Assembly: GCA_003820375.1 (NCBI GenBank)
Contig: RPQH01000016.1
Coordinates: 11-64,010, forward strand
Source of the DNA: Ignavibacteriota bacterium
GTDB lineage: Bacteria; Bacteroidota; Ignavibacteria; Tepidaquicellales; OLB5
Length of the DNA: 64,000 bases
Direction of reading: 5' to 3'
Both the position numbers and the translations under genes were made by a program. The notes below the pieces were generated by a model that saw nothing but the letters and a program-made list of their open reading frames with translations, had not been told where the DNA came from and ran no database searches. Shown here piece by piece: positions 1 to 28,788 of this stretch. Each line of letters opens with the position of its first letter. Within the stretch, counting starts at the first letter, position 1.

Positions 1-77
1 CCGTATGGCTGGCGGGAATGACATATGAAAAATGCTTGTTAATCCGCAATTCACAATTCGAAATTCGAAATTATCAG

Positions 78-165
78 AGTTGGGTTCAAAACAGTGCTAA
101 GTTGGGTTCAAGTTGTGCCGGAGTTGGTATCAAGTTGGTATCAAGTTGGTATCAAGTTGGGTCAT
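78..165. repeat. Tandem array with 11-bp period, about 8 units (AGTTGG-N5; three perfect AGTTGGTATCA units)
   Basis: Units read in register at 78, 89 (degenerate), 100, 111, 122, 133, 144 and 155. Confidence 0.85.
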
Positions 166-414
166 CGTTTTTCAAAAACAGGGGTTAACTCATTGCAGTA
201 TAAGAAGTTAGCTCCGTCAAATTCACCGGGATGCTATGAATAAAATGGCGATTATGTGAAGGAAATGCGGTTTATTTCGAAAAATAAAACTTCACTATAT
301 CGTTAACCAATATCGTTATGGGAAAAATCCGGTAGCAAATTATTGTCGCAGATGTTTGAGAGTTAAAGTGATACTTGAAGGTATTTCCGGTATATTTTGT
401 TCACACCCCGGTTC

Positions 415-492
415 AAATAGTGAAATAGCGAAATAGTGAGATAATGGTTTATTAATCTGATAAATCTGATGAATATGATGAATCTGATGAAT
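415..492. repeat. Adjacent short tandem arrays: 8-bp AAATAGYG x3-4 (415-446) and 9-bp AATCTGATG-like x4 (454-489)
   Basis: Direct reading: aaatagtg aaatagcg aaatagtg agataatg, then aatctgata aatctgatg aatatgatg aatctgatg. Confidence 0.8.
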
Positions 493-836
493 TATTTTAT
501 GCACTCCAAACTATTTTTAGATAAAACTTGACAATGAGTTAACACTATATTAAATTATATTGATGATGTTTATATAGCAGTATAAGCAAAAATAACCGTT
601 CTTTGATAATATAGAGATGAATTATCGCATGTCGCATAATTGCTGTAAAATACTGCTAACGGATTTGGTTAGATTTTGAAAGGTTGAAGAAAATATGTAT
701 TGAAAAATGCCCTAAAGGAGAAATTACTTTATCGGAACTAATTCCCTGTTACATATGTAAATAAAAGTAACCGATTGTTTTAATCATTGACATAAAAGCC
801 AATATTCAGTAAACTGTAATAACAAAACAACCAAAT

Positions 837-4944: not shown

Positions 4945-6618
4945 TTATAATAATGCAATGAAAAGAAGTAATAAAAACAGACCTGCAATTGCAGCACCTG
5001 TGTAAAACTTTTGCTCCAGCATAGTTTTCTTAAGTATCATTTCACGAAATTTACCTTTAATAACTGCTGGGTTACTTGCTTCTATATATGTTCCACCACC
5101 TTTATTTGCAAGCGACTCCATAGTCATATTTAAACTTTGGTCTGAATAACCAAAGCTCCCAAAACCACTACCAGAACCATAAGCAATTGTTGATAACGTA
5201 ATTTTTTGTTTTCTAGAAATATCCATATATTTAATTATTATTGAATCTAATGGGGGTATATTTCCGGAAGGGCAATTTTGCTGACCATCAGCTAATAATA
5301 TAATCATTCCATTTGCATCTTCTGGGATATTAGAAGAATAATTATAAGCTTTCTCAATTCCAGCATACATAGGAGTACTTCCATCAGCTTTTAATGTAAG
5401 GATAGAGTTTTCAATACGTTGAATATCCTGAGTATAAGGTACTATTATCGGCATATTTTCAGGTTGGCAATTTATTCCGAATACTGATGAGTATACAATA
5501 ACTGAAAAAGCATTATCTGTTGTTGGTAAATCCTTTATTATCTGGGGAACTGCTTTTTTAACTTCGTTAATTTTGTTATTAGAATTCATTGATCCAGATA
5601 CGTCAATTAAGAAAATAATATAATTTTTTGCTGTAATGGGTGTTTTTTTAAAACCAAGGTAATAGATTTTCTGATTAAAAGAAGTATTATAAGGAATTGG
5701 TGTAATTTCACCTAAATTTTTTAAGACTTCATTAGCAACATTATTAAGATCCCTAATATTTAGATATTCAAATGGTATTACTGCTAATGAACCTAACAAA
5801 GATATAACAACGGTTATTGGAGTTGTACTTTTTGAAGGATTTGATGGGTCAACAGGTTCTTCCCAAGCAATAGATTCTAAAAAATGTAATACCGGTTTCG
5901 AAAAAATTTCTTTAAAACTTAAATCAAGATAACTTTTATTATTTAAAATTCTGAAATTTTCTTGCTCTGATATTGCCTCTAAATAACTGTATGTCATTGA
6001 TATTCCTCTATGCTTGCTAACCAAAAGCTCTATCTTCTTATTAATGTCGTTTAATAAACAGCTATATTTATTTCTAATAAAATTTAGAGGATGATTTGGA
6101 GAATTATTATATTTAATTCTTATTCTTCCCCTAATTATTGCCAGAGCAATGAGTTCTTTTGAATAATCTCTTTCTAGTGGAATATTTGTTATTGTATTTT
6201 GATTGGGGTCTAAACAAGTGTAACTTATACTTTGACTTATAGAATGAAGATATTTTTCGTTAATTATTCTAAAATCATTGTCTTGTTCAAGTAAATCTGC
6301 ATGATTCCATAATGATTGTTCTAATGGTTTTGCCCAATAGTTTCCTTTTTTCCTCCCCCTCGTATAAAACTCCATAAATTTCATTTCTTCATTAGTCATC
6401 GTTTTGCCCTGTGATTTCATTATTGCATTTTTCTCAAATTCCGGATTTACTATTACAAAATCATTATAGCCAAATGTAATATAATCATCTATCAAAATAT
6501 TAAATTCTACATCGTTATCTCCACTTTTAAGATTTTGATCTTTTATTATTTTATTATTAGTGGTAAAGACATTAAGGAAGCAACAAATAAATATTAATAA
6601 TAGTAAATATTTTTTCAT
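4945..6618 (-). CDS. von Willebrand factor A (vWA) domain protein with signal peptide and C-terminal TM anchor
   Basis: MIDAS-type motifs: FLIDVSGSM, ADGSTPM, ILLADGQQN. N-terminal signal sequence. C-terminal hydrophobic FYTGAAIAGLFLLLLFIALL. Confidence 0.75.
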   Translation of the reverse strand: MKKYLLLLIFICCFLNVFTTNNKIIKDQNLKSGDNDVEFNILIDDYITFGYNDFVIVNPEFEKNAIMKSQGKTMTNEEMKFMEFYTRGRKKGNYWAKPLEQSLWNHADLLEQDNDFRIINEKYLHSISQSISYTCLDPNQNTITNIPLERDYSKELIALAIIRGRIRIKYNNSPNHPLNFIRNKYSCLLNDINKKIELLVSKHRGISMTYSYLEAISEQENFRILNNKSYLDLSFKEIFSKPVLHFLESIAWEEPVDPSNPSKSTTPITVVISLLGSLAVIPFEYLNIRDLNNVANEVLKNLGEITPIPYNTSFNQKIYYLGFKKTPITAKNYIIFLIDVSGSMNSNNKINEVKKAVPQIIKDLPTTDNAFSVIVYSSVFGINCQPENMPIIVPYTQDIQRIENSILTLKADGSTPMYAGIEKAYNYSSNIPEDANGMIILLADGQQNCPSGNIPPLDSIIIKYMDISRKQKITLSTIAYGSGSGFGSFGYSDQSLNMTMESLANKGGGTYIEASNPAVIKGKFREMILKKTMLEQKFYTGAAIAGLFLLLLFIALL

Positions 6619-6643
6619 AGTGTTCTTTTTAAAAAATATTTCA

Positions 6644-6961
6644 TTAATCTTCTTTTTTAATTAACATTTTTTTAGCCTCTTCTTGAATCGTTGTGAGTTC
6701 ATTTTCTTTCTCGGAAATTTTAATTAATAGCTCATTAATCTCTTTACATTTTTCTTTTATTATCAATTCATCATAGTTATTCTCTTTGTACATATTAAAA
6801 GTTGTTTTGCCAATATCGATAAAAATTTGAGTTTTCTTAATCTGTAGTTCAGAAATTTCTTCCTTAACTTTGTTTGTTTCGATGAATTCCTTAGATTTGA
6901 CACTTATTGTATTAAGTCCTTTACTTACACGTTTTTTAATTATATCAAAAAAATCAGTCAT
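6644..6961 (-). CDS. Small coiled-coil protein (105 aa)
   Basis: K/E/I-rich heptad pattern. No domain recognised. Confidence 0.45.
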   Translation of the reverse strand: MTDFFDIIKKRVSKGLNTISVKSKEFIETNKVKEEISELQIKKTQIFIDIGKTTFNMYKENNYDELIIKEKCKEINELLIKISEKENELTTIQEEAKKMLIKKED

Positions 6962-7022
6962 TTCTATAATTTATATAAATATTTTCACTAATTTTATTTC
7001 AATTTTGTGATTTTAAAACAAA

Positions 7023-7406
7023 TTATTGTGTAAAATGTTGTAAAAAAAGTCTTAACCCAACAATTGATGTTGTGGATAATGTATAAATTAAAAACTCTGA
7101 ATAGTCATATTGATTTATAATCAATGTTGTAATAGGCCAAAATCCTGTTTTGAAAATATAAAAGTCAGGTGTCAATGCTATTATGATAATATTTATAATT
7201 ATTATTAAGCAAAAGGTAATCAGAGAGAAAGCAACCCACTCATCGTCAAAAAGTAAAAACATACAGATAAACGTCCATATTCCTATTAAAATAATCGGAA
7301 AGTACCACCATCCAATTTCTCCAAATAAATATATAATACCTATAATTGCACCTATAATACCAATAGGTAAGCAACCTGTATAGTCGTCTGTTATACTACT
7401 GCTCAT
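7023..7406 (-). CDS. Small integral membrane protein (127 aa)
   Basis: Three to four strongly hydrophobic segments. Confidence 0.45.
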   Translation of the reverse strand: MSSSITDDYTGCLPIGIIGAIIGIIYLFGEIGWWYFPIILIGIWTFICMFLLFDDEWVAFSLITFCLIIIINIIIIALTPDFYIFKTGFWPITTLIINQYDYSEFLIYTLSTTSIVGLRLFLQHFTQ

Positions 7407-7459
7407 AAAATATTAATATATTATAAATCGTTGTTTTTAGGAATTGTTTATTTAAAAGC

Positions 7460-8017
7460 CTAGTTTAATTCTGCAAATTCACTTAATTTTTTCCATTCTC
7501 CGTCTATACATTTTTTAATCAATGAATTATCATTTATTTTATAATCATCTTTATATGATAATATTTCTTCCTTTTCATAGGGCCCAAATTCTTTGTTCTT
7601 TTTTATATAATATCCATATTTTATTTTTTGCGTTTTTTTCACAATATCTTCAATTGATTGTTCTTTCTTAGTGAGTTGTACTCCATCATGTTCCATTTTC
7701 TTTATTTCACCTCTGTCTTTTGGCTCATCACCATAATCATTTGGACCGTACGTTCCATCCGTACATAAAAGTACGAGATTATAAATTGGAATTAAAAGAA
7801 ACCAACCGCTTTCATTAACGTCATGCATTCTTTTAATAGCCTGAATGGTAATAAAAATATCAATAGCTAAACCAATTATAATTGTTAGTACGAATAACTT
7901 TCTATCATTACCAGTGGATAAATAAAATAATATTCGAATAACAGAAGCTAATATAAACATTATCCAAAAAGTTGATCTTGTAATACGTCCTTTTAAAGAT
8001 AGAATATTTGTATTCAT
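7460..8017 (-). CDS. DUF805 membrane protein fused to a GYF_2-like C-terminal domain
   Basis: GRITRSTFW...IKRMHDVNESGWFLLIPIYNLVLL...GPNDYG is the DUF805 (YhaH/YhaI) signature. C-terminal YYIKKNKEFGPYEKEEIL...GEWKKLSEF resembles GYF_2. Confidence 0.7.
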   Translation of the reverse strand: MNTNILSLKGRITRSTFWIMFILASVIRILFYLSTGNDRKLFVLTIIIGLAIDIFITIQAIKRMHDVNESGWFLLIPIYNLVLLCTDGTYGPNDYGDEPKDRGEIKKMEHDGVQLTKKEQSIEDIVKKTQKIKYGYYIKKNKEFGPYEKEEILSYKDDYKINDNSLIKKCIDGEWKKLSEFAELN

Positions 8018-8170
8018 TTTCGGTTTTGATATTTGCCTGTATGAACTTGCTAATAATAATTATGAAAATATTATGTTTTAGTTCTTACCTACTTAATATG
8101 ACACACAACAAAACTGATTTATGCAATAATAAATATTTTGTGAATAAATAAAAGAAATGGATAATTTATA

Positions 8171-10333
8171 TTACCGTTGTGGGTTGTTCGCTTGCAGGTA
8201 ATATTTATTCTGAATAGGGGAGTTCACAAACTTCTCTCCATTCCACCATCTTACATTGGTTTTTAATGAATCGGAGAGTTTTTGATAGTATTCTGACGTG
8301 TTGGATTTATTTGTAAGGTTGTCATTAATGCCAATAAAATGTGAGCTAAAAACTATTTCTTTTACATTCATATCCTTATCAAACTTATAAATAATGAAAA
8401 TATCTTCATCAGTAGTATTATATGTGCCTTCGGAAACAGTTACTTCTAAACCGTTTGTATCGAGCTGCTGAATTTCAATAACATCATTGTTCAGCTTTTT
8501 TAAATAATCTGTATTAATAATTGTTTTAGGAAATAGGATATAATATTTTTCCAGTCCCGGTTTTCCGTTTCTTAATGGGTCTGTCTGAGGACTTGCACCT
8601 TCAATGAAATCAGTATCAAAAATTACCATTGCAGCACATCTAAAGTGATTATTACAATATGCAGCAATGAATTCTTCCTTACCATCTTTCTCAATATCAG
8701 CAAATCTATTGACTACCAGTTGTCCGCTGTTCCAGTATTGAGATAATATTTTCCCTGTATGGTCAAGTTTAAATATTCCGAAAGGAAACGTTTTATTTAG
8801 TAAACCTGTAAGAATAATCTTTCTTGTATCATTGTTTAAAGATGGAGTTACAAAAATGCCATCAGTCTGAAAATTATCCTCATGTAAAGTATTATAATAA
8901 ACGGTTTGTCCTGGAATTGTATCTATCCATTTTACGTTACCATTGCCTTCAATACAATAAAGTAACCGGTTTTTTAAAGGGTCCGAAACAGTCCGGGTGA
9001 TATAAAGAATTTCATTCTTCCCATCACCATCTATATCTGTTATATTAACCTTTTTAGTGAAAATTTCTTTATTTGTGTAGAAGTTTTGAAAAGCAGGATC
9101 AACATTATCTGTTTCAAAAAGCTTAATATCATGCTTATTATAAAAACCTACCTTGTAATTTTCATATTTTGCATATTCAGGATTTTTATCAAGCTTTGGT
9201 ATTAGAAATGTTAATACAAAAAAGACCATTATAATAATTGAAACAAACAATAAAACTATGTTGATAAGATTACTGTGAATTTTCTGTAAATGTTTTATTT
9301 TCTCGGTTAATTTTAAATCGTATTTTTTAATACACTGCTCATTTTCCAAAACTTGTTCAAATTTCTTCACCGGGAATATTTCTAAACATCTGCCGGGATA
9401 TTTCTTATTTAGCTCAGAAAGCAAATTTTTCGCATCAGAATAATTATCTTCAGGGATAACAAAATTTTTAAACGGTGAATAAAATACAATTTCCAATTTT
9501 GCTTTAAGAACATTGTATGGCATCGGTACCATAAATCCCTTATCATTAAGCTCACCGGTGTAAACAGTGTTACATAAAAACTTATAATAATACTTGTTTG
9601 AAGTGTTAAATAATACCGCATTAAAGGCAAGTAAAGCTGTACCAATACCCAGAGATTTACCGAGATAACAGGCATCCATCTGACCTATGCTGTATATATA
9701 ATCGTAATTAGAATATTTTATTTTATCTTTCAGGCATTTCTGCTCTGCAATTTTAACTGAGTTTTCCAACTGTTCTTTTATTCCATTATCATCTACTCCG
9801 GTATCATTGGTTAGTATAAAGCTATTGTTTTTATTGCTGGTTCTTTTAATATCAATATTCAGAGGCAGAATTTCTCCTGCTGCTTGTTCATATTTTGATT
9901 TATTATCCGGTTCAATTAATACAATATTCAATTTATCTGGAAAAGCATATACTTTAGTTTCTTCTTTTATCTTGCCCTTCGTTTCACCAAGTATTAATAG
10001 AATTTCTTCTTTCTTCTTATTTAAAATTTCAGAAGCATCTTCAAATGCCTTTATGTCTAAAGAAACATCAGGTATTTGTGTGCAATAATCTAATATTTTC
10101 AGAAGGTCATTAATTCTTCCGGGTGCAATGTAATTGAATTCCTTTTTCTTTATTAAAAGAATAATGAAATGTGAAAATTCTAAATAATAGGAGTTGTATG
10201 GTGTTAGATTTTCGTGATGGAATAGCTCAGAAAGGAAAGCCGATATCTTTATAAGTTTAAGACCTGTACTGCAGGGTTTTTTTAACTCATTCTTGAGTTC
10301 GCTTGCTTTTATTTCTGTATCTAATATTGACAC
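8171..10333 (-). CDS. Membrane protein: N-terminal Lon-like (S16) protease-fold domain, one TM helix, FG-GAP/VCBS-like repeat ectodomain
   Basis: YLGKSLGIGTALLAFNAVL...VYTGELNDKGFMVPMPYNVLKAKLEIV...FVIPEDN aligns by eye to Lon DGPSAGIAM..AMTGEITLRG.VLPIGGLKEKLLAA...VLIP.EN, with the Ser and Lys positions retained. TM: LINIVLLFVSIIIMVFFVLTFLI. Also DIDGDGKNEIL and DIEKDGKEEFI. Confidence 0.6.
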   Translation of the reverse strand: MSILDTEIKASELKNELKKPCSTGLKLIKISAFLSELFHHENLTPYNSYYLEFSHFIILLIKKKEFNYIAPGRINDLLKILDYCTQIPDVSLDIKAFEDASEILNKKKEEILLILGETKGKIKEETKVYAFPDKLNIVLIEPDNKSKYEQAAGEILPLNIDIKRTSNKNNSFILTNDTGVDDNGIKEQLENSVKIAEQKCLKDKIKYSNYDYIYSIGQMDACYLGKSLGIGTALLAFNAVLFNTSNKYYYKFLCNTVYTGELNDKGFMVPMPYNVLKAKLEIVFYSPFKNFVIPEDNYSDAKNLLSELNKKYPGRCLEIFPVKKFEQVLENEQCIKKYDLKLTEKIKHLQKIHSNLINIVLLFVSIIIMVFFVLTFLIPKLDKNPEYAKYENYKVGFYNKHDIKLFETDNVDPAFQNFYTNKEIFTKKVNITDIDGDGKNEILYITRTVSDPLKNRLLYCIEGNGNVKWIDTIPGQTVYYNTLHEDNFQTDGIFVTPSLNNDTRKIILTGLLNKTFPFGIFKLDHTGKILSQYWNSGQLVVNRFADIEKDGKEEFIAAYCNNHFRCAAMVIFDTDFIEGASPQTDPLRNGKPGLEKYYILFPKTIINTDYLKKLNNDVIEIQQLDTNGLEVTVSEGTYNTTDEDIFIIYKFDKDMNVKEIVFSSHFIGINDNLTNKSNTSEYYQKLSDSLKTNVRWWNGEKFVNSPIQNKYYLQANNPQR

Positions 10334-10339
10334 ACTTTT

Positions 10340-11092
10340 TTATTGAAAGACTACAATAGTTATGTTCTTCCGTTGTTTATTTGAAATCCTGAACCTGTTA
10401 TTTGTAATTTTGCAATATTCATATTTTGAGTAATCCTCAGAATAAATAATATAAGCGGAAAAAAACCATTGTACTTTGTTTGGTACTAATTGAAACTCAA
10501 CATCGTCACCGGAAAATTTTATATTTAAAGCTAAATCATTATTTGTTAAACTTTGCCCGCTCAGTTCTTTAATAATAAATACAGCTTCGGGTAGTTTTAT
10601 AATTACATTTTGAGAACCAATAAACTTTTCTTTAATCTTAACTCTTCCGTTTTTATCTGCAATATATGATTTATTTATTCCGGGGATGTATGCTAATGAA
10701 TTTGCTGCGGGAGAATCTTCGTTGGTAATATAAAGTACATATTCACCACTGAATTTATTTTGCAGCAGTCTCGATACTGTCAGTTTTTCTGCCGATACGT
10801 AAGTTCTGACATGCTCATAATAATTTAATTTGTTCTCTTCATGCTGTGCTGCAAGCATGTACCTGTCATTTTCTATATCATCCTGGTGTAAAGTTTCTAA
10901 CTTAATTACCTTTTTACCGCATTTTTTTTCAAGTGTATTGAAAATATTATAAAACTCTTCTAATTCTATAACTTTGTTACGAATTTCTTCATCGGAACTT
11001 ATCATATCTTCTATTTCGCGTATTTTTTCAGCGGATAAAAGTGACCTGTTGAGAATATACAGGTCAAGTTCTATGTCTTTATACTCTTTCAA
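10340..11092 (-). CDS. Hypothetical cytoplasmic protein (250 aa); N-terminus faintly anti-sigma-like
   Basis: Good ORF, 6 nt from the downstream gene. The N-terminal helical segment LDLYILNRSLLSAEKIREIEDMISSDEEI resembles anti-sigma N-termini but lacks the Cys/His ligands and a TM helix. Confidence 0.4.
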   Translation of the reverse strand: MKEYKDIELDLYILNRSLLSAEKIREIEDMISSDEEIRNKVIELEEFYNIFNTLEKKCGKKVIKLETLHQDDIENDRYMLAAQHEENKLNYYEHVRTYVSAEKLTVSRLLQNKFSGEYVLYITNEDSPAANSLAYIPGINKSYIADKNGRVKIKEKFIGSQNVIIKLPEAVFIIKELSGQSLTNNDLALNIKFSGDDVEFQLVPNKVQWFFSAYIIYSEDYSKYEYCKITNNRFRISNKQRKNITIVVFQ

Positions 11093-11128
11093 AAATCTAC
11101 TATTTATTTATGTTATATGACACTATTT

Positions 11129-11839
11129 CTAATTAAGTTCTCTTTCGGGATAATTATATTTAATATTATCAGATAAACGTCTTTCGTATGCTTTTTTTAC
11201 AATTGAAAAAAGATAATCTTCCTTAATTGCTTTACAAAATTTACATTGATTGCTCAGAATAATGAAAATATTCTCTACGACTTCGGAAACAAAAAAGTGA
11301 TTATATTTTTTCATGAAGATTTCGAAAAGCAATTCTTCCGGCGGAAATTGTTCTGAATCAAAATCATTTTCATTGTTTTCAACTAATAATATGTAATTTT
11401 CGTTATGGTGTGAAATTTTCTGATACTTATCCTGATTTCTCTGCAGATAAATTCTGACAGCTTTTCGTGTTTTCCAGTACATATCGCCAAGATTTTCCCT
11501 CAAATTGGCTGTATACTGATTTGTCCTTTTTCGTATTATTTCCTTTAAATAAGCTTTTACTTCTTCATCGTGCTTTATTTTTTTCGTTTTACAGATTTTT
11601 TCAAAATAGGTATTAAAGTGGATAAAGTATCTGTCTTTTTCTTCAAACAAATCAGCAATGCAGTCTGATGCAAGTTCTTCAAAAGTACAACCAAGATTTT
11701 GTGTCAAGTATTTACTTGAGGAAATATTTTTCTGCATGCGTAAATGGGCAATAGACATATTACAGCAGATTTCGTAAAATCTGTTTACAAATGGGGAGTC
11801 CTTGCCGGATACCAAAATAGAATGTAATATTTCTAACAT
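11129..11839 (-). CDS. Hypothetical protein (236 aa), possibly a highly divergent sigma-70/ECF-like regulator
   Basis: ELASDCIADLFEE and AYLKEIIRKRTNQYTANLRE weakly resemble sigma regions 2.1/2.2. No clear region 4. Confidence 0.3.
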   Translation of the reverse strand: MLEILHSILVSGKDSPFVNRFYEICCNMSIAHLRMQKNISSSKYLTQNLGCTFEELASDCIADLFEEKDRYFIHFNTYFEKICKTKKIKHDEEVKAYLKEIIRKRTNQYTANLRENLGDMYWKTRKAVRIYLQRNQDKYQKISHHNENYILLVENNENDFDSEQFPPEELLFEIFMKKYNHFFVSEVVENIFIILSNQCKFCKAIKEDYLFSIVKKAYERRLSDNIKYNYPERELN

Positions 11840-18327: not shown

Positions 18328-18356
18328 TTAAATTAAGGGTTAATTGAAATATGCTG

Positions 18357-18390
18357 AATCCGGGTTTGGAAACGAGCCCGGATTTTTTAT
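18357..18390 (+). terminator. Rho-independent terminator after ccmF
   Basis: Stem ATCCGGG (18358-18364) / CCCGGAT (18377-18383), followed by a T-run. Confidence 0.8.
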
Positions 18391-18400
18391 TGCTCATAGA

Positions 18401-18470
18401 GTTCTTTAAGTTCTTTAAGTTCTTTAAGTTCTTTAAGTTCTTTAAGTTCTTTAAGTTCTTTAAGTTCTTT
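18401..18470. repeat. Perfect 9-bp tandem repeat GTTCTTTAA x7, plus a partial unit
   Basis: Direct reading; head-to-tail with no spacers. Confidence 0.95.
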
Positions 18471-18598
18471 TCAGAGGCAGTGTCTGGTCTTAGTTTGAGA
18501 ATTTGGATTAACTTAGATTAACTGATATGTATGCCAGAGAAAGAAAGAACTTAAATTTACAAATATTGACCTGACACAAGCGTCAGCTTAAGATGACC

Positions 18599-18815
18599 GG
18601 ATGATTTACAATCAATGCTGGACAAGGGGTTATTATCAATTAAGAATGAAGAATGAAAAATGAAGAATTGGATGATTTACAATTGTAGTTAGACAAGGGG
18701 TTACTGATATAAATAATTATAAACTGCAATTACATTATTATCTTTATTAACAACTCCAGACTGCGATTAACGAATTACCCCTTGCAAACTATCCGGCTTG
18801 AATGATTTACAATCT
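18599..18815. repeat. Repeat cluster: 71-bp-spaced direct repeats (GATGATTTACAAT-N8-GACAAGGGGTTA x2), a 7-bp array AAGAATG x4 (18642-18669), and an inverted partial third copy
   Basis: GATGATTTACAAT at 18600 and 18671. GACAAGGGGTTA at 18621 and 18692. ATTACCCCTTGC at 18774 and GAATGATTTACAAT at 18801. Confidence 0.75.
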
Positions 18816-19064
18816 GTGTATAAAGCCGCATTTTGCTCATTTTTTACGTAGGAAAACTCCTACAAATGAAAATTTTTCAATTTTTATTTTTTTTGTTTCA
18901 TATCTAACCCTAAAGCCAATCTCAGAATAAATTATTTTCACGACCTGATAAGAACAATTTCGATATTAACAAAGAACGACAGTGAGTGATAACCGGCAGT
19001 ATTTCTCACTACTATATAAAAATAATATAGAGATTGCCGCTTGTCAAGTTTTAACTAAAAATAG

Positions 19065-19109
19065 TTTAGAGTGTGTAGAGTGCTTAGAGTGAGTGGAGTG
19101 TTTAGAGTG
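19065..19109. repeat. 9-bp tandem array (TTTAGAGTG-like x5)
   Basis: tttagagtg tgtagagtg cttagagtg agtggagtg tttagagtg. Confidence 0.85.
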
Positions 19110-19464
19110 GCATTTTGGGCTATTTTGCAGGTAATTATATTAACGCTGCGATAAGCAAGTAAGGATTCCCCTCTTGAGAGGGGTGGACTCCGATGGAGCG
19201 TTAGCGGAAATCGGATGACGGGGTGTGTCCTGAAATAAACCGTGAATACCCTAAAGCATTACTTTAACTCTTCAATTATAGCGACGACAAACCGGTTATT
19301 TTGTTTTATTTTTCCCAAAAACCAGCGGGCAGGAGTGGTTTTTCAAAAACCTCGATTCCTGCATTAAATCGCTATATTTTGGGTGATTTTTGGCACTTTG
19401 GTCAGGAGTTATCTGCTTATACTGCAATGAGTTACAGCCATTTTTCGAAAACTCCTGCCCGGAA

Positions 19465-19530
19465 AGTGCCCGTAAAGTGCCCGTAAAGTGCCCGCTGAGT
19501 GCCCACTGAGTGCCCGCTGAGTGCCCGCTG
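19465..19530. repeat. 11-bp tandem array (AGTGCCCGTAA/AGTGCCCGCTG x6)
   Basis: Units read in register at 19465, 19476, 19487, 19498, 19509 and 19520. Confidence 0.9.
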
Positions 19531-19587
19531 GATGACCGCGGGGTTTTTTACACTCCCATTATAATCTCATTATAAAACTTTATATAC

Positions 19588-20058
19588 TTACGGTATTATT
19601 TTCTTCCTCACTTTAAGATTTGATAATTTAATGTACTCGTAATACCAGCAATGGTTTAGATGGATTCTGATTTTTACCTTAAAGCCCGAAGTATGCGGTA
19701 CCGGAAAATTATGATGCCCGCTTATTGAATTGTAATCTTCTGCATTAAAAGAATTGCTGAGATTATTTTCTTCATCAAAAACCTCTACTGTTAGTGTGTG
19801 TAATGCCGTAGATAATGCTGTATCAAAACGTGATGCATATCCGTCAAAGTCCACTTCATAATCATACTTATCCTGATTTTGGGGAAAATATGTATGCATA
19901 AAAACAGTATCGCCTGCACCATACATTGAAAGCGAATCCAATTTGTAAACAACATATGGGTCTGCATTTTGATTGTTATTAACAATATTATTTTCTCTGC
20001 ATTGAAGAAAGAGAAAAGACAGGGAGAGAATTAATATTTGAATTATATATTTTTTCAT
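19588..20058 (-). CDS. Hypothetical lipoprotein (156 aa from the internal start)
   Basis: MKKYIIQILILSLSFLFLQC is a lipoprotein signal. The longer ORF to 20211 adds an implausible N-terminal extension. Confidence 0.5.
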   Translation of the reverse strand: MKKYIIQILILSLSFLFLQCRENNIVNNNQNADPYVVYKLDSLSMYGAGDTVFMHTYFPQNQDKYDYEVDFDGYASRFDTALSTALHTLTVEVFDEENNLSNSFNAEDYNSISGHHNFPVPHTSGFKVKIRIHLNHCWYYEYIKLSNLKVRKKIIP

Positions 20059-20489
20059 TGGGAAGTGAAGAAAATTATTTTCTTTATTTGAAAAGGCTGT
20101 GAGGATGCCCGGCAATATAATATTATTTGATGCAATTATATTCATGGCATATAAATATGCGAAAAAACTTTGTGAAGATATACTGAAAAAACAAAAGTCG
20201 CCATTTTTCAACTATATTACGGGATTTTCTTTGACAAATTACACCTCAAAAAGTTCAATACTATGCATTAATCGCAGTATTTCAGGAAAATTTGCCTGAA
20301 AATTTTGTGATTTCTGAGAAAATCTTCTTTGACTTAAAATGTGCTAAATCAGTAATTTATTAACATTAAAAACCACATTTTCAAAATGTGATACAGTGAA
20401 AAGCTTTTTTAGAGTTTATTACTGACAATTCTCTTGCTGATGTGGAATATATTTAAACAATAATTATAAATTAAAAAGGAGTTGGGAAT

Positions 20490-20648
20490 ATGAAAGTTTC
20501 TCCATGGCATTCAAAAAAATCCATTGTTTATCATAACAACACAAAATGTACTTTAGGAAATAATATAGAAAGAATAAATAAACAATCGGGAACAGGTGGT
20601 AAACCTATATGTAGTTTATGTTCGAAATTAAATAAAGTTAAGAAATAA
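20490..20648 (+). CDS. Small Cys-containing protein (52 aa; below the ORF-track cutoff)
   Basis: RBS aaaggag lies 8 nt upstream of the ATG. Encodes MKVSPWHSKKSIVYHNNTKCTLGNNIERINKQSGTGGKPICSLCSKLNKVKK, with a C..(20)..CxxC spacing suggesting a metal-binding knuckle. Confidence 0.4.
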   Translation: MKVSPWHSKKSIVYHNNTKCTLGNNIERINKQSGTGGKPICSLCSKLNKVKK

Positions 20649-20727
20649 ACCACTTACTAAAATTTCTTTTGTAGATGAAGATAGGATAATTTTTAATAAC
20701 ATATAAATTTAATAAAGGAGAAATATT

Positions 20728-21006
20728 ATGGCACTTTTAAGCAGCAGAGATCTTAAATATACATATTCTTGGACAGCTTATGAAGGTGACAATCCTAAAA
20801 TAAGCGGTGAACCTGATAATACTTTGTTGAATAGGAATGAGGGATATGAAATGCTTTATTTTATAAATAAGTTCGCTGAGATACACAATTTTATAAATAA
20901 AGAATCCGGACATAAAGTAGAAGAATTGATTAAAACTAAGGTACCTAGCCACATACATTCACAAATAAAAATAAAGGATTGGTTAGTGCAAAATTGGAAT
21001 AATTGA
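20728..21006 (+). CDS. Hypothetical small protein (92 aa)
   Basis: RBS aaaggag upstream. No recognisable domain. Confidence 0.45.
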   Translation: MALLSSRDLKYTYSWTAYEGDNPKISGEPDNTLLNRNEGYEMLYFINKFAEIHNFINKESGHKVEELIKTKVPSHIHSQIKIKDWLVQNWNN

Positions 21007-21071
21007 GTAAAAATATATTGTAAATTAACATGAATAAAAATATTTTATCTTAAATAATATAATAAAATAAT

Positions 21072-21344
21072 ATGCAAACTTTAATTACGTATGATGTAAA
21101 CAAAGATCATACAAAAGTAAAAAAAGCTTTAAAGGAAAAAGGGTATAGAGATATTATTGCTGGGTCTAATAATGTACCCTGTAATTTACCAAATACAAGT
21201 TTATGGAAATCAGGAGTGAGTTTTACAACAGCTCTTTCAGATCTACAGGAAGTTACCCAAAAATTAAATGTTATACTTGAAAGGGCATTCACTGCGGAAT
21301 TTGACAAATGGACAGGAATTGAAGGATTAGAGCATAAAGAATAG
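21072..21344 (+). CDS. Hypothetical small protein (90 aa)
   Basis: The beta-alpha start MQTLITYDVNKDHTKVKKALKEKGY is reminiscent of small ferredoxin-fold (Cas2/VapD-like) proteins, but this is not diagnostic. A terminator follows. Confidence 0.45.
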   Translation: MQTLITYDVNKDHTKVKKALKEKGYRDIIAGSNNVPCNLPNTSLWKSGVSFTTALSDLQEVTQKLNVILERAFTAEFDKWTGIEGLEHKE

Positions 21345-21372
21345 GGCAAAGGCGGTAATACCGCCTTTTAAT
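21345..21372. terminator. Bidirectional rho-independent terminator between convergent genes
   Basis: AAAGGCGG (21348-21355), loop TAATA, CCGCCTTT (21361-21368), flanked by A/T runs. Confidence 0.75.
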
Positions 21373-21405
21373 AAATAATATTAATTATGGTTGTAAATAT
21401 TTCTG

Positions 21406-22584
21406 TTATAATATTTTTTTTCTGAAGTCACGTAAAGCCTGTCTCCAAGCTCTTAGCCAGTTGCCATTGTTTTTTTTCTCTTCAAATAAAATATCTTCTT
21501 CTTCAAGTTCAGTCCAATTGTTTTCAGCTTCTTTTAGCCAAATATTTACATTTGAAAGTGGGTCGTTAGAATCTAAACATTTTTCAACGTTCATGAACCA
21601 ACATAAATAATGTCTCCAACTGTAACCTAACCATGCTTTTTTTGGTTTTTCCTTAAACGATTCTATAATAACATTTCCCCAAAAATTATTTGAAAAATTC
21701 GTATTAAAAAAATGCTCAAAATTATTTTCGTTCAAACGACCAATGTCAGCCTCCCTTAAAAATGTAAGTAAAGAATGTTCAAACCAATATTCTAATTGAC
21801 CGCCACCTTTTTTCGAAGGTTCTTCAAAACGTGATAAAGTAAACCTTCTTAAGTTAAAAAATTTGCCTGTTGCACAATGAGTTGCGCCAGCAACTTTATA
21901 TAAGATCATCTCCGATGAACAAAATGAAATTAATACTTCTTTTCCTGTTGAATTCAATAAATGAATTAATTGCATTGCACCTAAAAGCTCATCTGCTTCA
22001 TCAAGTTCTCTGCGTGGTTCGGTATCAGATATAAAAACAATGTAATATCCACAACATTCCACTTCTGTTAAAATAGAAGCGTAAGTGAATATATTATCTT
22101 GTTTTATTAAGGCTTTCATACTTACCATAACTGTACATAAGATTTCAATTTCAGTATCTCTACTATTTTTATGTAAACTTTTACAGGTTTCAGCACATAC
22201 TTCATAATAGTTCTCGTCAAATAGTTTAGGAAGTATCACAGGTGAAGCAACTTTATTTACATTTAACTTGCTACTAAATTTTATAAGTTTTTTATTTATC
22301 TCATTCCACCAGGGTTTTGAAGCATAATCAGTTGCAGAATCAATATCCTTAGGAAAGTAAGGTTGTTTTATCAAATGTTCTCTTTTTGAGCGCGGAAAAT
22401 AAAGTTGTGGGTCTAATATAATATCTAATTTTTTGTCAGTCTTGTCCGTAATTTTTAACAACTGTTTTTGTAATTCCGCTGGATTTCTATTGACTGGACT
22501 TAAAATTATTCCTTTAAATTCTCTAATGTGTTTTTCACCTACAAGGTTTTCTGTATCATGTCCCATTTGCATATATGAAGCCAT
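21406..22584 (-). CDS. Hypothetical protein (392 aa), third gene of the nuclease-like/kinase operon
   Basis: RBS aaggag 10 nt after the kinase stop. No motif I can assign. Trp-rich helical C-terminus. Confidence 0.6.
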   Translation of the reverse strand: MASYMQMGHDTENLVGEKHIREFKGIILSPVNRNPAELQKQLLKITDKTDKKLDIILDPQLYFPRSKREHLIKQPYFPKDIDSATDYASKPWWNEINKKLIKFSSKLNVNKVASPVILPKLFDENYYEVCAETCKSLHKNSRDTEIEILCTVMVSMKALIKQDNIFTYASILTEVECCGYYIVFISDTEPRRELDEADELLGAMQLIHLLNSTGKEVLISFCSSEMILYKVAGATHCATGKFFNLRRFTLSRFEEPSKKGGGQLEYWFEHSLLTFLREADIGRLNENNFEHFFNTNFSNNFWGNVIIESFKEKPKKAWLGYSWRHYLCWFMNVEKCLDSNDPLSNVNIWLKEAENNWTELEEEDILFEEKKNNGNWLRAWRQALRDFRKKIL

Positions 22585-22594
22585 GTAATACTCC

Positions 22595-23446
22595 TTAATT
22601 AAAAATATTTAAAATATCTTGTGTGTTTATATACCTTTGTACTGGCCATGCAGAAAGCATCTTTAATATATCCTTAAAACCCATTTTTGTTATTTCTATA
22701 ATAAATTCATTTGAACATGGTAATCTGTTTGCAATGTGATTTACTACATTTGAAATATTCATACCGGTTGATTGAAAAGGGTGTTTACCTGTCAAGCAAA
22801 TACCTAATACTATCCCAATTGAGAACTGATCACTTCTCCATTTTATTAAATGTTTTTCGTTATTTAATTGCTCAGGTGAGCTATAATAAGGTGTGCACGG
22901 ACCTTGGGGCATCCAAGACATTGTTAAAGAAGGTAAGGACAAATCTCTAACAAGACCAAAATCAACTAAACTTGGATATTCAGATTTCGTGCTAAACATA
23001 ATATTATCTGGTTTGATATCTCTATGGACTAAATCTAGGGTTTTCAAATGTTCTAATGCTTTTATTAATGCGAACGCATACTTTTTAACATCACTTATAG
23101 GTACTTTCCCATATTTTAATCTATCTGTTAAACAGCCATCGTCATAAAATTCTTCAATTATGTAAATAAAAAGAGTTCCATTATATGCATATTGCCCATA
23201 CTCATGAATTTTTGAAATATATGGACAATCACATTTTTTTATAGCATTTATCTCTCTTGTAGTCCTATCTATACTGATTTTTTGCAGATCAACAATTTTA
23301 AGGGCTATTTCTAGACTGTTGCAAGTGGTAGCCTTGAAAGTTTCTTTAAATGCTCCATTACCGACAAATTTATTATATATTAAATTTAATTTTTTGCAAA
23401 TATCTTTTGCAACATCCTCATATTGTGGATTAAAAGGTTTGGCCAT
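22595..23446 (-). CDS. Ser/Thr protein kinase (Hanks type), catalytic domain only
   Basis: GAFKETF (P-loop-like), IALKIV (VAIK Lys), HRDIKPDNIMF (catalytic loop), VDFGLV (DFG), YYSSPEQ (APE). Confidence 0.85.
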   Translation of the reverse strand: MAKPFNPQYEDVAKDICKKLNLIYNKFVGNGAFKETFKATTCNSLEIALKIVDLQKISIDRTTREINAIKKCDCPYISKIHEYGQYAYNGTLFIYIIEEFYDDGCLTDRLKYGKVPISDVKKYAFALIKALEHLKTLDLVHRDIKPDNIMFSTKSEYPSLVDFGLVRDLSLPSLTMSWMPQGPCTPYYSSPEQLNNEKHLIKWRSDQFSIGIVLGICLTGKHPFQSTGMNISNVVNHIANRLPCSNEFIIEITKMGFKDILKMLSAWPVQRYINTQDILNIFN

Positions 23447-23865
23447 TAGGCATTTTCGATATAGTTATTGGCATGTTCTGTAAGCCAGACCGAATATGGA
23501 CAATTTTTGATTGCTTCGATATGAACAATAATAGAAGATTGATTTATAGTACATAACCCTATTCCTCTTTTTTCAAATTCATCGATAAATTTTAATGCTA
23601 TCGTTGCTGTTTTATCAGGTAGGACCACATAAGAATAATGAGCATAAATTGTGTTTTTATAAGCCTGGTGTAAAGCATCTTTCCATTTATAAAGTTTTGC
23701 TTCAAATGCTATTAAAAAACCATCTTTTGTTATACCTATAATATCAGTTTTTCCGCTTCTATAATTGAACTCAGTAGCGAAATTTAAACATTTGACATTT
23801 TTTTTTCGTGTTGTCTTTAGCTTTTTTTGAAAATCTTTAACTAATTGTGATTCCTTTGTATACAT
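23446..23865 (-). CDS. PD-(D/E)xK nuclease-fold-like protein (139 aa)
   Basis: ATEF...GKTDIIGITKDGFLIAFEAKLYKW fits the E...D...(D/E)xK spacing. Its stop overlaps the kinase start (TAATG). Confidence 0.5.
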   Translation of the reverse strand: MYTKESQLVKDFQKKLKTTRKKNVKCLNFATEFNYRSGKTDIIGITKDGFLIAFEAKLYKWKDALHQAYKNTIYAHYSYVVLPDKTATIALKFIDEFEKRGIGLCTINQSSIIVHIEAIKNCPYSVWLTEHANNYIENA

Positions 23866-24403
23866 TAATATAAAATAACAAATATTAAAAATAAAAGATA
23901 CAACTCTAATGGTATTATTAATTTATTTTTTACTTTTTTTCGTTACTGTTACTCATTATAATAACAATTGTGTCATATTTTTCCATTCCATTGCACATTC
24001 GTAGTTTTTCGTCTCCCTGATAAGGGGGAATAAAAAAGAAACTAAAAACAGTGTTAGGTCTTTCTTGAAAATACAGATAAATTTTAATCATTACCGGTTT
24101 TCCTCTCCGTGCTCTCAGTGTGCTCTGTGGCTATTATCTTTTCATAGGCAAGGGGTGATTATCCATCAATCAAGTTCTGTTATATCTATAAAGATTATTA
24201 GTTATTGTAGATTGTATGTATAATCACGGAATCACCGTCTTGTCCCTAAATCCTCTTTGTGGCAGGGGAGGGGAGTGAGTTCTTCAGTTTCATTCATGGG
24301 ATTGCCACGCTTTCCTTGCTTTATAACAATAAATACTTGTCATCTATTTTTCAGTTCTAATTTATATTCCATTACTTGTTCGAGCTCGCAATTCATTTAT
24401 TGA

Positions 24404-28552: not shown

Positions 28553-28788
28553 ACCTCACCCCCCAACCCCCTCTCCATCCACGCAGTGCGGGACTTCGCA
28601 AGCTCAGCATAGAGAGGGGGAGATTCTGAGGATTTATACTCTTCTACTCCCTCCTCCACTTGGAGAGGGGAGATTCTGAGCTTTTAAGCTCTTCTACTAC
28701 CTCTCTCCATTTGGAGGAAAGCAAGAAGAATTTTTAATCACCTGCATCTCCCCCTCTCCAAGTGGAGAGGGGGTTGGGGGGGTGAGGT
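28553..28788. repeat. Nested palindromic repeat element inside the cytochrome cluster
   Basis: Outer arms ACCTCACCCCCCAACCCCCTCTCCA (28553-28577) / TGGAGAGGGGGTTGGGGGGGTGAGGT (28763-28788). Two internal units of about 50 bp contain GGAGAGGGGAGATTCTGAG...CTCTTCTACT.CCTC. Confidence 0.85.

Follow-up and report, generated by a model that had tools for sequence, protein, structure and literature searches.

What kind of element is the composite repeat that lies at both ends of the first 20 kb of this locus? An earlier note on the window (the whole 64,000-nt stretch of DNA analyzed here) had described it as a set of ordered blocks, present twice, in which tandem arrays keep their position and period while their units are replaced, and had likened the arrays to plasmid iterons and parC-type centromeres. 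We asked whether the resemblance between the two segments is real, how far the element extends and recurs, and which explanation best accounts for it.

Two inverted copies of a composite element

The composite repeat was borne out. MAFFT alignment recovered the same blocks in the same order at 18866-19549 (plus strand) and 74-714 (minus strand). Local alignment of the two copies scored 61 versus 23.4 ± 2.6 for 200 dinucleotide shuffles (z = 14.6), so the block similarity is significant when formally aligned; a same-strand control alignment of the two segments scored 26. Repeat search of the window returned two inverted pairs, 502-552/19023-19073 (51 nt, 82%) and 169-215/19405-19451 (47 nt, 81%), and a 27-mer block and a 19-mer block were each found exactly twice, where shuffles of the window lead one to expect 0.00 and 0.03 occurrences. 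The 9-bp and 11-bp arrays are likewise real in both copies by tandem repeat search, at 454-492 (9 bp × 4.3) and 99-161 (11 bp × 5.7) in copy 1 and at 19067-19109 (9 bp × 4.8) and 19456-19539 (11 bp × 6 to 7) in copy 2, with a TRF period of 11 for the 3' array. Their units had been called unrelated, which holds in part: the 11-bp unit of copy 2 (GAGTGCCCGCT) includes the GAGTG core of that copy's own 9-bp array. Homology also runs some 175 nt past the previously reported limits on the side of block A, which places copy 2 at ~18866-19549 and copy 1 at ~714-74 on the minus strand. The features of the two copies are as follows.

Copy 2, a divergent member
18866..19549, plus strand: whole element (nhmmer family profiles and alignments)
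18866..19040, plus strand: left arm (alignments across copies and species)
18981..19010, plus strand: hairpin or inverted repeat between CAAAGAACG and the -10-like box (-9.0 kcal/mol, z -2.5)
19019..19047, minus strand: promoter-like site TTGACA-N17-TATTTT, reading into the left arm (28/28 copies)
19041..19067, plus strand: block A, TTGTCAAGTTTTAACTAAAAATAGTTT (exact-block scan)
19066..19109, plus strand: GAGTG-type 9-bp array, the commonest filling of the cassette site (15/31 copies)
19163..19230, plus strand: nested small double-hairpin repeat (GGATTCCCCTCTTGAGAGGGG..CTCCGATGGAGCGTTAGCGGAAATCGGAG..GGGGTGTG)
19221..19434, plus strand: core (alignments)
19416-19434, plus strand: anchor CTTATACTGCAATGAGTTA, part of the core
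19456..19539, plus strand: 11-bp array GTGCCCG(TAAA/CTGA), C 29%, G 33%
19524..19549, plus strand: terminator-like hairpin CCCGC-U-GG AUGA CC GCGGG, then a T run, closing the copy (MFE folds)

Copy 1, a canonical member
74..714, minus strand: whole element (nhmmer and mapped ends)
528..556, plus strand: promoter-like site TTGACA-N17-TAAATT, facing 714 and gene 837
508..534, minus strand: block A (exact-block scan)
454..492, minus strand: 9-bp ATTCATCAG array, a separate dispersed satellite in the cassette site
415..443, minus strand: 8-bp CACTATTT array module
186..409, minus strand: core with type Y central cassette, anchor at 204-186
74..161, minus strand: 11-nt array of the canonical kind (seven CCCAACTTGAT-type units), rich in C and poor in G when read on the element strand

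Profile searches with nhmmer matched copy 2 at 18867-19075 (left arm, E 1e-32) and 19159-19550 (core, E 1e-58), and the family profiles matched copy 1 at 723-501 (E 3e-61) and 415-47 (E 1e-108). The left arm is recognized by blocks kept across copies and species (TTTTTCAAT..TATTTTTTT, TCTAAC, ACGAC, and GATATTAACAAAGAACG), and the TCAAGTT of block A is the reverse complement of the AACTTGA core in the canonical 3' array. Within copy 2, the hairpin has a sequence private to that copy with its pairing kept, and the core reads, in order, GGGGTGTG, ACTTTAACTCT (19262-19272), GCGAC, a replaced central segment, a CGATTCC..AAATCG hairpin, and the anchor. The nested double-hairpin repeat of copy 2 is 89% identical over 66 nt to L043:4152-4217, a locus of a related species that carries this repeat alone, with no other part of the element. 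The CACTATTT module of copy 1 recurs in L020, L036, and L038, and L011 and L024 have it in their flanks.

Copy number, modular variation, and relatives

The two copies in the window belong to a much larger set. An exact scan of the metagenome with the 19-mer found 38 loci, all of them family members except one chance hit; these collapse to 31 distinct loci, to which a copy with one mismatch (L012:126-459) is added. "Present twice" was therefore wrong, and the family comprises at least 32 copies. All are in one Ignavibacteriae genome, since the two assemblies are 100% identical across shared loci; the copy search covered ~0.42 Mb of this genome. The same 19-mer gave just two unrelated chance matches in a scan of GTDB genomes, so the exact block is private to this genome.

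Individual copies are 603 to 697 nt long, and homology between them starts and stops sharply at about -570 and +145 from the anchor. Every copy has the same order of parts: a left arm of ~175 nt, the hairpin, block A, the cassette site, a core of ~240 nt, and the 11-nt-phased array. Conservation sits mostly in short blocks, found in the interior as well as at the ends. In the 26 copies with both ends, the termini (TAGTGCATTTTTC... and ...CCCAACTCTGA) are not complementary, so that terminal inverted repeats are absent, and no direct repeat common to both flanks was found that would mark a target-site duplication. The left flank mostly ends in TT; a weak 5-bp hairpin lies 3 to 20 nt inside the left end, with no such hairpin at the right.

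The variation among copies is modular, and it changes how the arrays are to be read. Five different fillings occupy the cassette site that follows block A, in classes of 15, 7, 4, 3, and 1: the GAGTG 9-bp array in 15 copies, three non-array cassettes in 7, 4, and 3, and the ATTCATCAG array in copy 1 only. The ATTCATCAG satellite also occurs elsewhere, at 52607-52620, at 53041-53100, and beside L028, and the cassette site has further small repeats nested in it. At the 3' end, the 11-nt array is of the CCAACT type in about 29/31 copies, and the GTGCCCG array of copy 2 is the lone divergent member among the copies compared. Motifs in 29 tails are spaced by 11 nt 91 times and by 22 nt 36 times, and canonical tails (C 32%, G 13%) have 4 to 7 units, most often 6. 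Two alternative core halves exist, together with a chimera (L038), and the modules (hairpin type, cassette, and core half) assort independently among copies. The rule of constant position and period with a replaced unit thus fails family-wide, given the cassette classes and the near-uniform 3' array. The idea of a specificity swap is mostly unsupported, the 5' unit of copy 1 being an independent satellite and the 3' array of copy 2 a lone variant. On the best reading, the window copies came to differ as subfamilies diverged, cassettes were exchanged, and satellites became nested, rather than by any programmed change in what the arrays bind.

All copies are intergenic, on contigs with housekeeping genes and a gene order common to related chromosomes, and adjoin genes of any kind in any orientation, including those for a 160-amino-acid (aa) protein, ccmF, a 207-aa open reading frame (ORF) with no Pfam match, type IX secretion cargo, and ALDH, as well as glmS-like genes. 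Type IX cargo genes occupy 10/50 element flanks versus 11% of ORFs in the same loci, a weak enrichment. A role as antisense regulator of the coding sequence for the cargo C-terminal sorting domain was rejected, as no consistent complementarity was seen. Also rejected, on gene order, was a composite transposon or invertible 18.5-kb segment bounded by the inverted copies: rsfS, accC, accB, efp, ccmE, and ccmF, which lie between them, have the same order and orientation in relatives without copies.

Relatives were reached through neighboring proteins and are represented by left-arm fragments only. A left-arm-only profile from this genome matched L050 (E 1e-11) and L051 (E 2e-5), both directly downstream of the ALDH gene, the place occupied by L018 in this genome. 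In L047 a left arm precedes the 160-aa gene, the arrangement also seen in copy 1, and L046, L044, and the P0123 contig are without the element at that junction. In all, three related species have diverged left arms, in two cases at the same gene junctions. At orthologous junctions the flanking intergenic DNA is unalignable, whereas the element blocks can be aligned. Contigs of this genome and of three relatives end inside the element.

The promoter-like site and the explanations of the family

The best-conserved signal of the family is the promoter-like site. The earlier note had pointed to an outward-facing TTGACA-N17-TAAATT/TATTTT sequence, and this was upheld in the form TTGACA-N17-TAnnTT in 28/28 left arms, always pointing away from the arrays, with a spacer that is invariant in length (17 nt) and free in sequence. 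The adjoining hairpin has z < -2 in 19/28 copies (mean z -2.6), retains its pairing with at least five unrelated stem sequences across the family, and is the only structure in the element with fold support. Four related species conserve a promoter of the same form ahead of gene 837, so the lineage appears to use such promoters; the pattern points to TTGACA-N17-TAnnnT as a promoter form of the lineage, in contrast to the -33/-7 type of Bacteroidetes. Family alignments contain no conserved Bacteroidetes-type TTTG/TAnnTTTG pair in the element. A conserved promoter at 787-815 belongs to gene 837 itself, which thus has no need of the element's. A weak inward-facing candidate promoter, ACGACA-N16-GATATT, is present in 17/28 copies. 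A crude enrichment test of -35/-10 sites upstream of genes counted 13 sense versus 19 antisense and was negative or underpowered. The notion of a regulon-type promoter cassette was discarded: the genes downstream of the promoter-like site are functionally unrelated, and the neighboring gene is opposite in orientation in 13/24 cases.

We consider it probable that the family consists of clade-specific, dispersed, non-coding modular repeats that carry a promoter-like site and have been reshuffled between copies. Their distribution suggests mobility, presumably by a means that leaves neither inverted ends nor target duplications. Recombination or gene conversion probably keeps the copies alike within the genome, which would account for copies that are 77 to 91% alike (differing by 10 to 23%) and for relatives at the same junctions that are homologous but clearly more diverged. 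The invariant TTGACA-N17-TAnnTT site is predicted to be a working promoter, from which transcription would start at the hairpin, cross the conserved left arm, and run out of the element. The arrays would grow and shrink by slippage in whole units, within the range of 4 to 7. In geometry, the C-rich and G-poor 11-nt array of canonical copies matches a Rho-loading site, and it may stop transcription on the element strand. That idea does not fit the G-rich array of copy 2, in which an intrinsic terminator may do the same job. Block conservation along the whole 0.65 kb exceeds what a passive repeat needs, which favors a function, for instance as an RNA or a protein-binding platform.

A bolder version, which we regard as unlikely, would make the family a new self-contained non-coding unit of Ignavibacteria, selected at the same junctions across species, with a promoter-fired, hairpin-capped RNA from one arm and, on the other, exchangeable cassettes and a six-unit, 11-nt-phased array for a partner, such as Rho, that is hexameric or helically phased. 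If it were true, the replacement of the array unit together with the matching internal segment in copy 2 would change binding, and "same period, new unit" would be right for a minority of copies.

Could the copies instead be paralogues of a non-coding RNA gene that serves the host? Each would then be a small transcription unit or antisense pair, one RNA running from the conserved promoter through the left arm and another, possibly, on the opposite strand through the cassette, core, and array; the variable cassette or array would serve to bind targets or titrate proteins. The invariance of the promoter-like site, a 5' hairpin kept by differing sequences, and blocks that are conserved across species where flanking intergenic DNA is not all agree with this. 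So does the way copies end: copy 2 in its terminator-like hairpin and T run (missed by a simple terminator scan) and some 60% of the canonical copies in GATTTTTT. Two further details are in keeping with pairing, namely, a G-to-A change in block A of L005 that has its complement in a C-to-T change within one array unit of that copy, and an A/G alternation that preserves U-A/U-G pairs in one small helix. The tests of structure argue the other way. The fold energy of the canonical copy is no different from that of shuffles on either strand (z -0.8 and -1.3), and RNAalifold gave -6.7 and -0.05 kcal/mol with negligible covariation and almost no compensatory pairs, results that do not support a covarying structured RNA; the 7-bp TTAACTC/GAGTTAA pairing showed compensated changes in 0/3 cases. 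Rfam returned 0 matches at gathering score over the window, with chance-level matches only in the two copies at E up to 10, and neither known RNA families nor tRNA-derived repeats were found. Neighboring genes share no common function, and we know of no precedent for a 0.6-kb RNA gene with about 30 paralogues. On balance this explanation seems improbable to us.

A protein-coding role fared no better. The family contains no ORF conserved in position or length, and the conserved small ORF expected of a type I toxin-antitoxin or small-protein locus was not found. The left-end frame (MKKICIEKC...) was rejected, as it spans 1 to 84 codons with no conserved start and unrelated tails and in some copies enters 9-bp arrays in the flank. 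Core ORFs differ between the two cassette types.

Doubtful as well is a miniature derivative, made of the left and right ends of a larger mobile element and moved in trans by a single-strand (HUH) transposase, an IS110-type enzyme, or a tyrosine recombinase, in which the cassette site would be the place of the lost enzyme gene and the enzyme would bind at the conserved blocks and phased repeats. Enzymes of these kinds work without inverted ends and leave the target unduplicated, and the sharp ends of the element, with neither of these features, would suit them. The variable region at a constant internal position, the imperfect inverted pair formed by block A (TCAAGTT plus TTATC) and the array start (GATAA-CCC-AACTTGA), the presence or absence of the element at one junction among related species, and the contigs that break inside it are also in line with this proposal. 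Against it, ~0.42 Mb of this genome contained neither an autonomous insertion sequence (IS) with the same ends nor solo ends, and no transposase, recombinase, or other partner gene was found, nor an empty/filled pair marking an insertion. Nor is the element the end of any IS found in the DNA searched. The divergence among copies argues against a recent burst, conservation extends through the interior as well as the ends, and the right end lacks a strong subterminal hairpin. Nor does the element resemble any phage or plasmid record: an origin from either was rejected, the single blastn match being a chance one of 42 nt, and three block patterns gave one chance match only against viral contigs.

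Arrays that serve as one-helix-face sites for a specific binding protein, with unit differences as specificities, would explain the strict 11-bp (and 22-bp) phasing of the 3' array, its position upstream of the conserved promoter-like site, and the GAGTG/GAGTT core that recurs in the 5' array, in the anchor, and inverted in the 3' array, but this reading is very hard to credit with at least 32 chromosomal copies amid housekeeping genes and no rep or par genes, one 3' unit common to about 29/31 copies and hence no diversity of specificity, a 5' site without an array in half of the copies, and a copy 1 5' unit that is a generic satellite found elsewhere in the genome.

Comparison with known systems

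To our knowledge, nothing is known of the repeats, promoters, or small RNAs of Ignavibacteria, which are uncultivated or poorly studied, and the element has no sequence similarity in Rfam or in phage or plasmid collections. Compared by description, dispersed modular repeats of the kind we favor find their closest counterparts, in unrelated organisms, in BOX (Streptococcus pneumoniae), BIME/REP, ERIC, and the Neisseria Correia elements, which are likewise intergenic, non-coding, and multicopy with no transposase of their own. Those elements occur in tens to hundreds of copies, and some have promoter or terminator activity. With the BOX/BIME-like mosaics the family shares ordered modules, a variable internal tandem subunit, and copies reshuffled by recombination. 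It differs in being larger (0.6 to 0.7 kb versus roughly 0.1 to 0.3 kb), in its invariant -35/-10-like site with a fixed 17-nt spacer, in tandem units of only 9 to 11 nt with strict helical or 11-nt phasing, and in lacking the terminal inverted repeats that Correia and ERIC elements have.

Miniature inverted-repeat elements (MITEs) are also small, non-coding, multicopy, and intergenic, and vary in presence among related genomes. The family is without the terminal inverted repeats and target-site duplications that define them, has no parent IS in the ~0.42 Mb searched, and is conserved beyond its ends. CCCAACTTGATA may resemble the phiX174/pC194 rolling-circle nick site, and block A the Tn7 end repeats; both matches are short and AT-rich and were given no weight. 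The direct repeats phased at about one helical turn are shared with plasmid iterons and parC. That analogy, drawn in the earlier note, fails on context: no rep or par gene is adjacent, the copies are numerous, chromosomal, and variously neighbored, and there is essentially one type of unit.

The layout predicted here, a strong promoter that faces outward from no more than ~180 nt inside one end and a transcript that begins with a stem-loop, is also that of IS10 pIN/pOUT, plasmid antisense, and type I toxin-antitoxin regions, and the weak inward candidate promoter would give overlapping antisense RNAs as in those systems. In contrast to them, the family has no transposase or toxin ORF to regulate, and its inward promoter is weak and putative.

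Natural rut sites are not regular arrays, unlike those of the family, and the array of copy 2 is G-rich. The canonical 3' tail is, as in rut sites, unstructured, C-rich, and G-poor. The primary binding site of Rho accepts (YC)N9-13 repeats, and its footprint measures 57 ± 2 nt (PMC6144790). One pyrimidine-C motif per 11 nt, repeated 4 to 7 times and mostly 6, corresponds to (YC)N9 spacing and to the ~57-nt Rho footprint. Canonical tails thus have the sequence character of a rut site by that definition (PMC6144790), and the copy 2 array, given its base composition, does not. By this analogy, the canonical array may be a Rho loading site.

Apart from any function, the family supplies some 30 naturally occurring versions of a single promoter-like signal, backed by an orthologous gene promoter, and offers an explanation for assembly breaks in these genomes. 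It is also a natural example of non-coding DNA that is conserved block by block, exchanges cassettes, and evolves in concert. Should the phased C-rich array prove to load Rho, or the left arm prove to be an RNA, the element would be a new type of portable transcription-control module; otherwise, it takes its place beside the known dispersed repeats as one more selfish family for annotators to mask.

Copy number, boundaries and modules of the repeat

The earlier note had described two segments of the window that share a series of ordered blocks. When 1-600 was reverse-complemented and aligned with 18980-19620 (+), these blocks and their order were confirmed; the local alignment score lay 14.6 SD above dinucleotide shuffles, and a same-strand control gave background. 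A repeat finder run on the window paired the two best blocks in inverted orientation (82% over 51 nt and 81% over 47 nt). Each of them occurs exactly twice where chance predicts none, and Tandem Repeats Finder recovered both the 9-bp and the 11-bp arrays. Homology extends ∼175 nt past block A, beyond the limits first proposed, and gives the following extents.

∼714-74 (-): copy 1, canonical
∼18866-19549 (+): copy 2, divergent

Public metagenome contigs were scanned for exact matches to the 19-mer CTTATACTGCAATGAGTTA, which yielded 38 loci in two JGI assemblies, including one chance match (L033). All remaining loci have the other blocks at fixed distances, and in nearly every copy ACTTTAACTCT precedes the 19-mer by exactly 165 nt. 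Merging of loci left 31 distinct sites, both window copies included, so that what had been described as present twice is a family. A further copy in locus L012, with one mismatch in the 19-mer, was missed by the exact scan, and the true copy number is therefore higher than 31. The two assemblies are identical over shared loci (at most 1 mismatch in 1.4-2.4 kb), which assigns every copy to a single genome; the NCBI name carried by its CcmF protein is that of an uncultivated Ignavibacteriae bacterium. In an all-against-all BLAST of 5-kb windows, similarity sets in sharply at about -570 and breaks off as sharply at about +145 relative to the 19-mer, and the flanks are unrelated. The total length is 603-697 nt.

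Modules of the element, left to right in element orientation
Left end: sharp, between T and TAGTGCATTTTTCAATACATATTTTTTT
Left arm, ∼175 nt: blocks CCAAAATCTAAC, CCGTGAGC, TTACGACATGC and GATATTATCAAAGAACG
Hairpin: after the left-arm blocks
TATAAT-rich stretch: terminates in ATATAG
Block A: TTGTCAAGTTTT-NNNNN-AAAATAGTTT
Cassette site: after block A
Small G+C-rich hairpin modules, one or two per copy: GGGGTGTG or GGGGGATGA at the end
Core, constant length: ACTTTAACTCT, GCGAC, GATATAGTGAAGTTTTATTTT, a 75-nt half of one of two types, and finally GTTATCTNCTTATACTGCAATGAGTTAAC
Small hairpin after the core: GTTTTnnAAAAC
11-nt-phased array: 4-7 (mostly 6) CCCAACTTGAT-type units; right end immediately after GAACCCAACTCTGA

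Nearly every combination of hairpin, cassette and core half is represented among the copies, and the core of locus L038 is chimeric, which implies exchange between copies. The G+C-rich double hairpin of copy 2 (19163-19230) occurs without the element downstream of ccmF in a related species (locus L043), and small repeats adjoin several copies on either side, among them a ∼115-nt unit (18478-18590) bounded by inverted GTGTCTGGTC...GACCTGACAC, which recurs on the right-hand side of the element in L004, L020 and L012. The nested double hairpin and the neighboring repeats mark the cassette site and the surroundings of the element as collecting points for other repeats. Additional repeats were seen in the window.

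52607-52703 and 52973-53069: 97-nt inverted arms, 85% complementary and 269 nt apart, with the 9-bp satellite of copy 1 (ATTCATCAG/TGATGAATC) at the outer ends and inverted CAAGGGGTAAT motifs inside; a candidate invertible segment or other repeat family
18599-18810 and 52760-52995, also L043 4280-4400: GGCAAGGGGTTAC and its inverted copy, paired with GATGATTTACAAT
28603-28772: intergenic 50-bp tandem repeat with CCCCTCTCC/GGAGAGGGG hairpins
44371-44461: intergenic 49-bp direct repeat, TCCACGGGTTAAAACCCGTGG...

The GGCAAGGGGTTAC/GATGATTTACAAT family also lies downstream of ccmF in a related species and is thus older than the species split.

Arrays and the promoter-like site

After block A, 15 copies carry the 9-bp GAGTG-type array of copy 2, and three different non-array cassettes occupy this site in 7, 4, and 3 copies. 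The ATTCATCAG array is found there in copy 1 only; it is a separate satellite, present also at 52607-52620 and 53041-53100 and beside L028. More than half the copies are bordered at the left end by similar arrays of other 7-9-bp units, and elsewhere such short arrays directly follow gene terminators, as at 18400-18470, where a perfect 9-bp array (AGTTCTTTA x 7.9) comes directly after the ccmF terminator hairpin (18356-18385). Short arrays are a general habit of intergenic DNA in this genome. At the 3′ end, a CCAACT-type array is common to ∼29 of 31 copies; the tail of L013 is unrelated to it, and the GTGCCCG units of copy 2 occur nowhere else in the DNA compared. A programmed swap of unit specificity, as the note had proposed, is not borne out, since most 3′ units are of one type and the 5′ site mixes arrays with non-array cassettes.

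In the canonical tails, the interval between motifs is 11 nt in 91 cases and 22 nt in 36; the strand (32% C, 13% G) is predicted to lack structure, and array length differs by whole units, as slippage would give. The primary binding surface of Rho needs pyrimidine-C dimers 9-13 nt apart, six sites giving a footprint of 57 ± 2 nt (PMC6144790), and the geometry of the canonical array matches this published requirement. For the canonical array, the most concrete guess at a function would be Rho loading. The copy 2 array is G-rich (33%), and after it, at 19524-19549, come a terminator-like hairpin and a T run; a Rho-type canonical tail and the copy 2 hairpin would fit two ways to end the same transcript. 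In 24 of 28 copies, the array core AACTTGA recurs in block A in reverse complement, as TCAAGTT. L005 is the sole copy with TCAAATT in block A, and one of its array units has the matching AATTTGA (rough chance estimate ∼0.01, for a single event); the block-A variant of L004 has no compensating array change.

On the strand opposite to element orientation, every one of the 28 available left arms contains TTGACA-N17-TAAATT/TACATT/TATTTT/TAATTT, and the first 11-12 nt of the 17-nt spacer vary freely among subfamilies. Two fixed hexamers at a fixed distance around a free spacer form the pattern that selection on a sigma-70-type promoter leaves. No second site of similar conservation emerged from a systematic scan; on the opposite strand, the strongest candidate (ACGACA-N16/18-TATATT/TATTAT) is present in 17 of 28 copies. 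The outward-facing promoter-like sequence of the earlier note thus proves to be the most conserved signal of the family, although the gene starting at 837, toward which it had been said to point, has its own promoter, TTGACA-N17-TAAACT at 787-815. That form is kept in three related species (L046, L047, L048), a fourth (L049) has TTGACA-N17-TATTCT in its place, and the DNA around the site drifts between those species. Its conservation partially answers whether this phylum uses such promoters and suggests that the Ignavibacteria lineage uses -35/-10 promoters, not the Bacteroidetes -33/-7 type.

A transcript from the site in the element would start at the conserved TAGTGAT, enter the hairpin at once, then cross the conserved left arm and exit the element. 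The hairpin sequence has been replaced at least 5 times with pairing retained (z < -2 in 19 of 28 copies, mean -2.6). In 13 of 24 copies, the gene on the promoter-output side reads toward the element instead of leading away, and genes downstream of the site have unrelated functions.

Relatives, age and neighboring genes

A search of 185,579 GTDB species genomes for the exact 19-mer gave two chance matches and nothing else, and relatives were therefore reached through neighboring proteins. Where CcmF is 71% identical, the gene block is kept with no element at either border. Two species with 84% identity in ALDH, the gene beside L018, have a diverged left arm downstream of it in the same orientation, which is the junction of L018 in this genome; a profile built solely from copies of this genome detects these arms at E values of 1e-11 and 2e-5. 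In a third relative, ∼4 tandem copies of a ∼58-nt unit (AACCCCGTAGGGGTGATATTATTGTTACAAAAACTAATATAAAAAATT; L052 4400-4652) lie downstream of ALDH instead of the element. A species whose 160-aa protein is 83% identical has a left arm upstream of the gene for it, like copy 1. The organism of L050 has no element at the 160-aa junction (L046), nor does the P0123 contig. Contigs of the three relatives with left arms all end 110-160 nt into the element, which suggests that it is repeated there too.

AGTGCAyTTTTC, ACATATTTTT, TCTAAC, ACGAC, and GACAAAGAAC survive between species; the DNA from the stop codon of the gene to the element is not alignable. Copies within this genome are 77-91% identical, visibly closer than L018 is to relatives' copies at its own junction, which indicates that concerted evolution (gene conversion or turnover) probably acts on top of constraint on the blocks.

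A type IX secretion C-terminal sorting domain is encoded by 10 of the 50 genes directly beside copies (at L002, L011, L012, L014, L016, L021, L026, L027, and L029), against a background of 11% of ORFs in the same loci, and in nearly all the 3′ end faces the element. Two stretches of the window are missing from otherwise syntenic relatives.

2230-11839: between rsfS and accC; the end of a 568-aa ORF (2230-3936) resembles, by eye, a Hint/intein-type domain (CFPHDALVTMSDGSQKKISEI...)
∼19588-24400: between ccmF and the multihaem cytochrome cluster; a Ser/Thr kinase gene (22595-23446) and several ORFs without Pfam matches

Nature of the element

With moderate confidence, we read the element as a dispersed, mosaic intergenic repeat that is clade-specific and non-coding and has a functional-looking promoter, a hairpin-capped transcript, and a phased slippage array. 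It would have reached numerous intergenic sites by a process that leaves neither inverted ends nor duplications, recombination would homogenize copies within genomes, and slippage would change the length of the array. Copy number, boundaries, the order of modules, conservation of the blocks, occurrence in relatives and the lack of coding sequence and of global structure are shown directly; activity of the promoter, the transcript, the mode of spread and Rho loading are inferred. A coding role was rejected: between copies, ORFs are conserved in neither position nor length, and the left-end frame spans 1-84 codons with no conserved start.

A set of RNA genes that serve the host would account for the cross-species conservation of blocks and for the promoter and hairpin, but we consider it unlikely, as structure and covariation are lacking and the copy number would be unprecedented. 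The canonical copy is not globally structured (z -0.8 and -1.3 against shuffles on the two strands), and the z of about -3.6 of copy 2 on both strands is due to nested palindromic modules. RNAalifold gave almost no consensus structure or covariation for the core and left arm, Rfam gave no match at gathering score and only chance-level matches at E values up to 10, and ARAGORN found nothing.

Somewhat less probable still is a miniature composed of the left and right ends of a larger element and moved by an HUH, IS110-type, or tyrosine recombinase, for which no partner gene is in hand. A classical MITE was rejected, the ends having no inverted repeat and the sites no target duplication, as was a phage or plasmid origin. 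Nor do the two window copies bound a composite transposon: the 18.5 kb separating them consists of housekeeping genes, whose order and orientation are the same in relatives without copies. The protein-binding iteron or centromere first suggested is very improbable, being contradicted by genomic context and by the uniform 3′ unit.

A 0.65-kb non-coding unit with ∼30 copies, a conserved promoter-like site, and cross-species blocks, in an unstudied phylum, merits attention. The element falls short of the defining features of MITEs, iterons, and Rfam families. As a dispersed mosaic repeat, it is closest in behavior to the modular BOX elements of pneumococci and the BIME/REP clusters of enterobacteria, from which it is set apart by a sequence similar to nothing known, its own size, its own fixed promoter-like site, and its own very short, strictly phased units.
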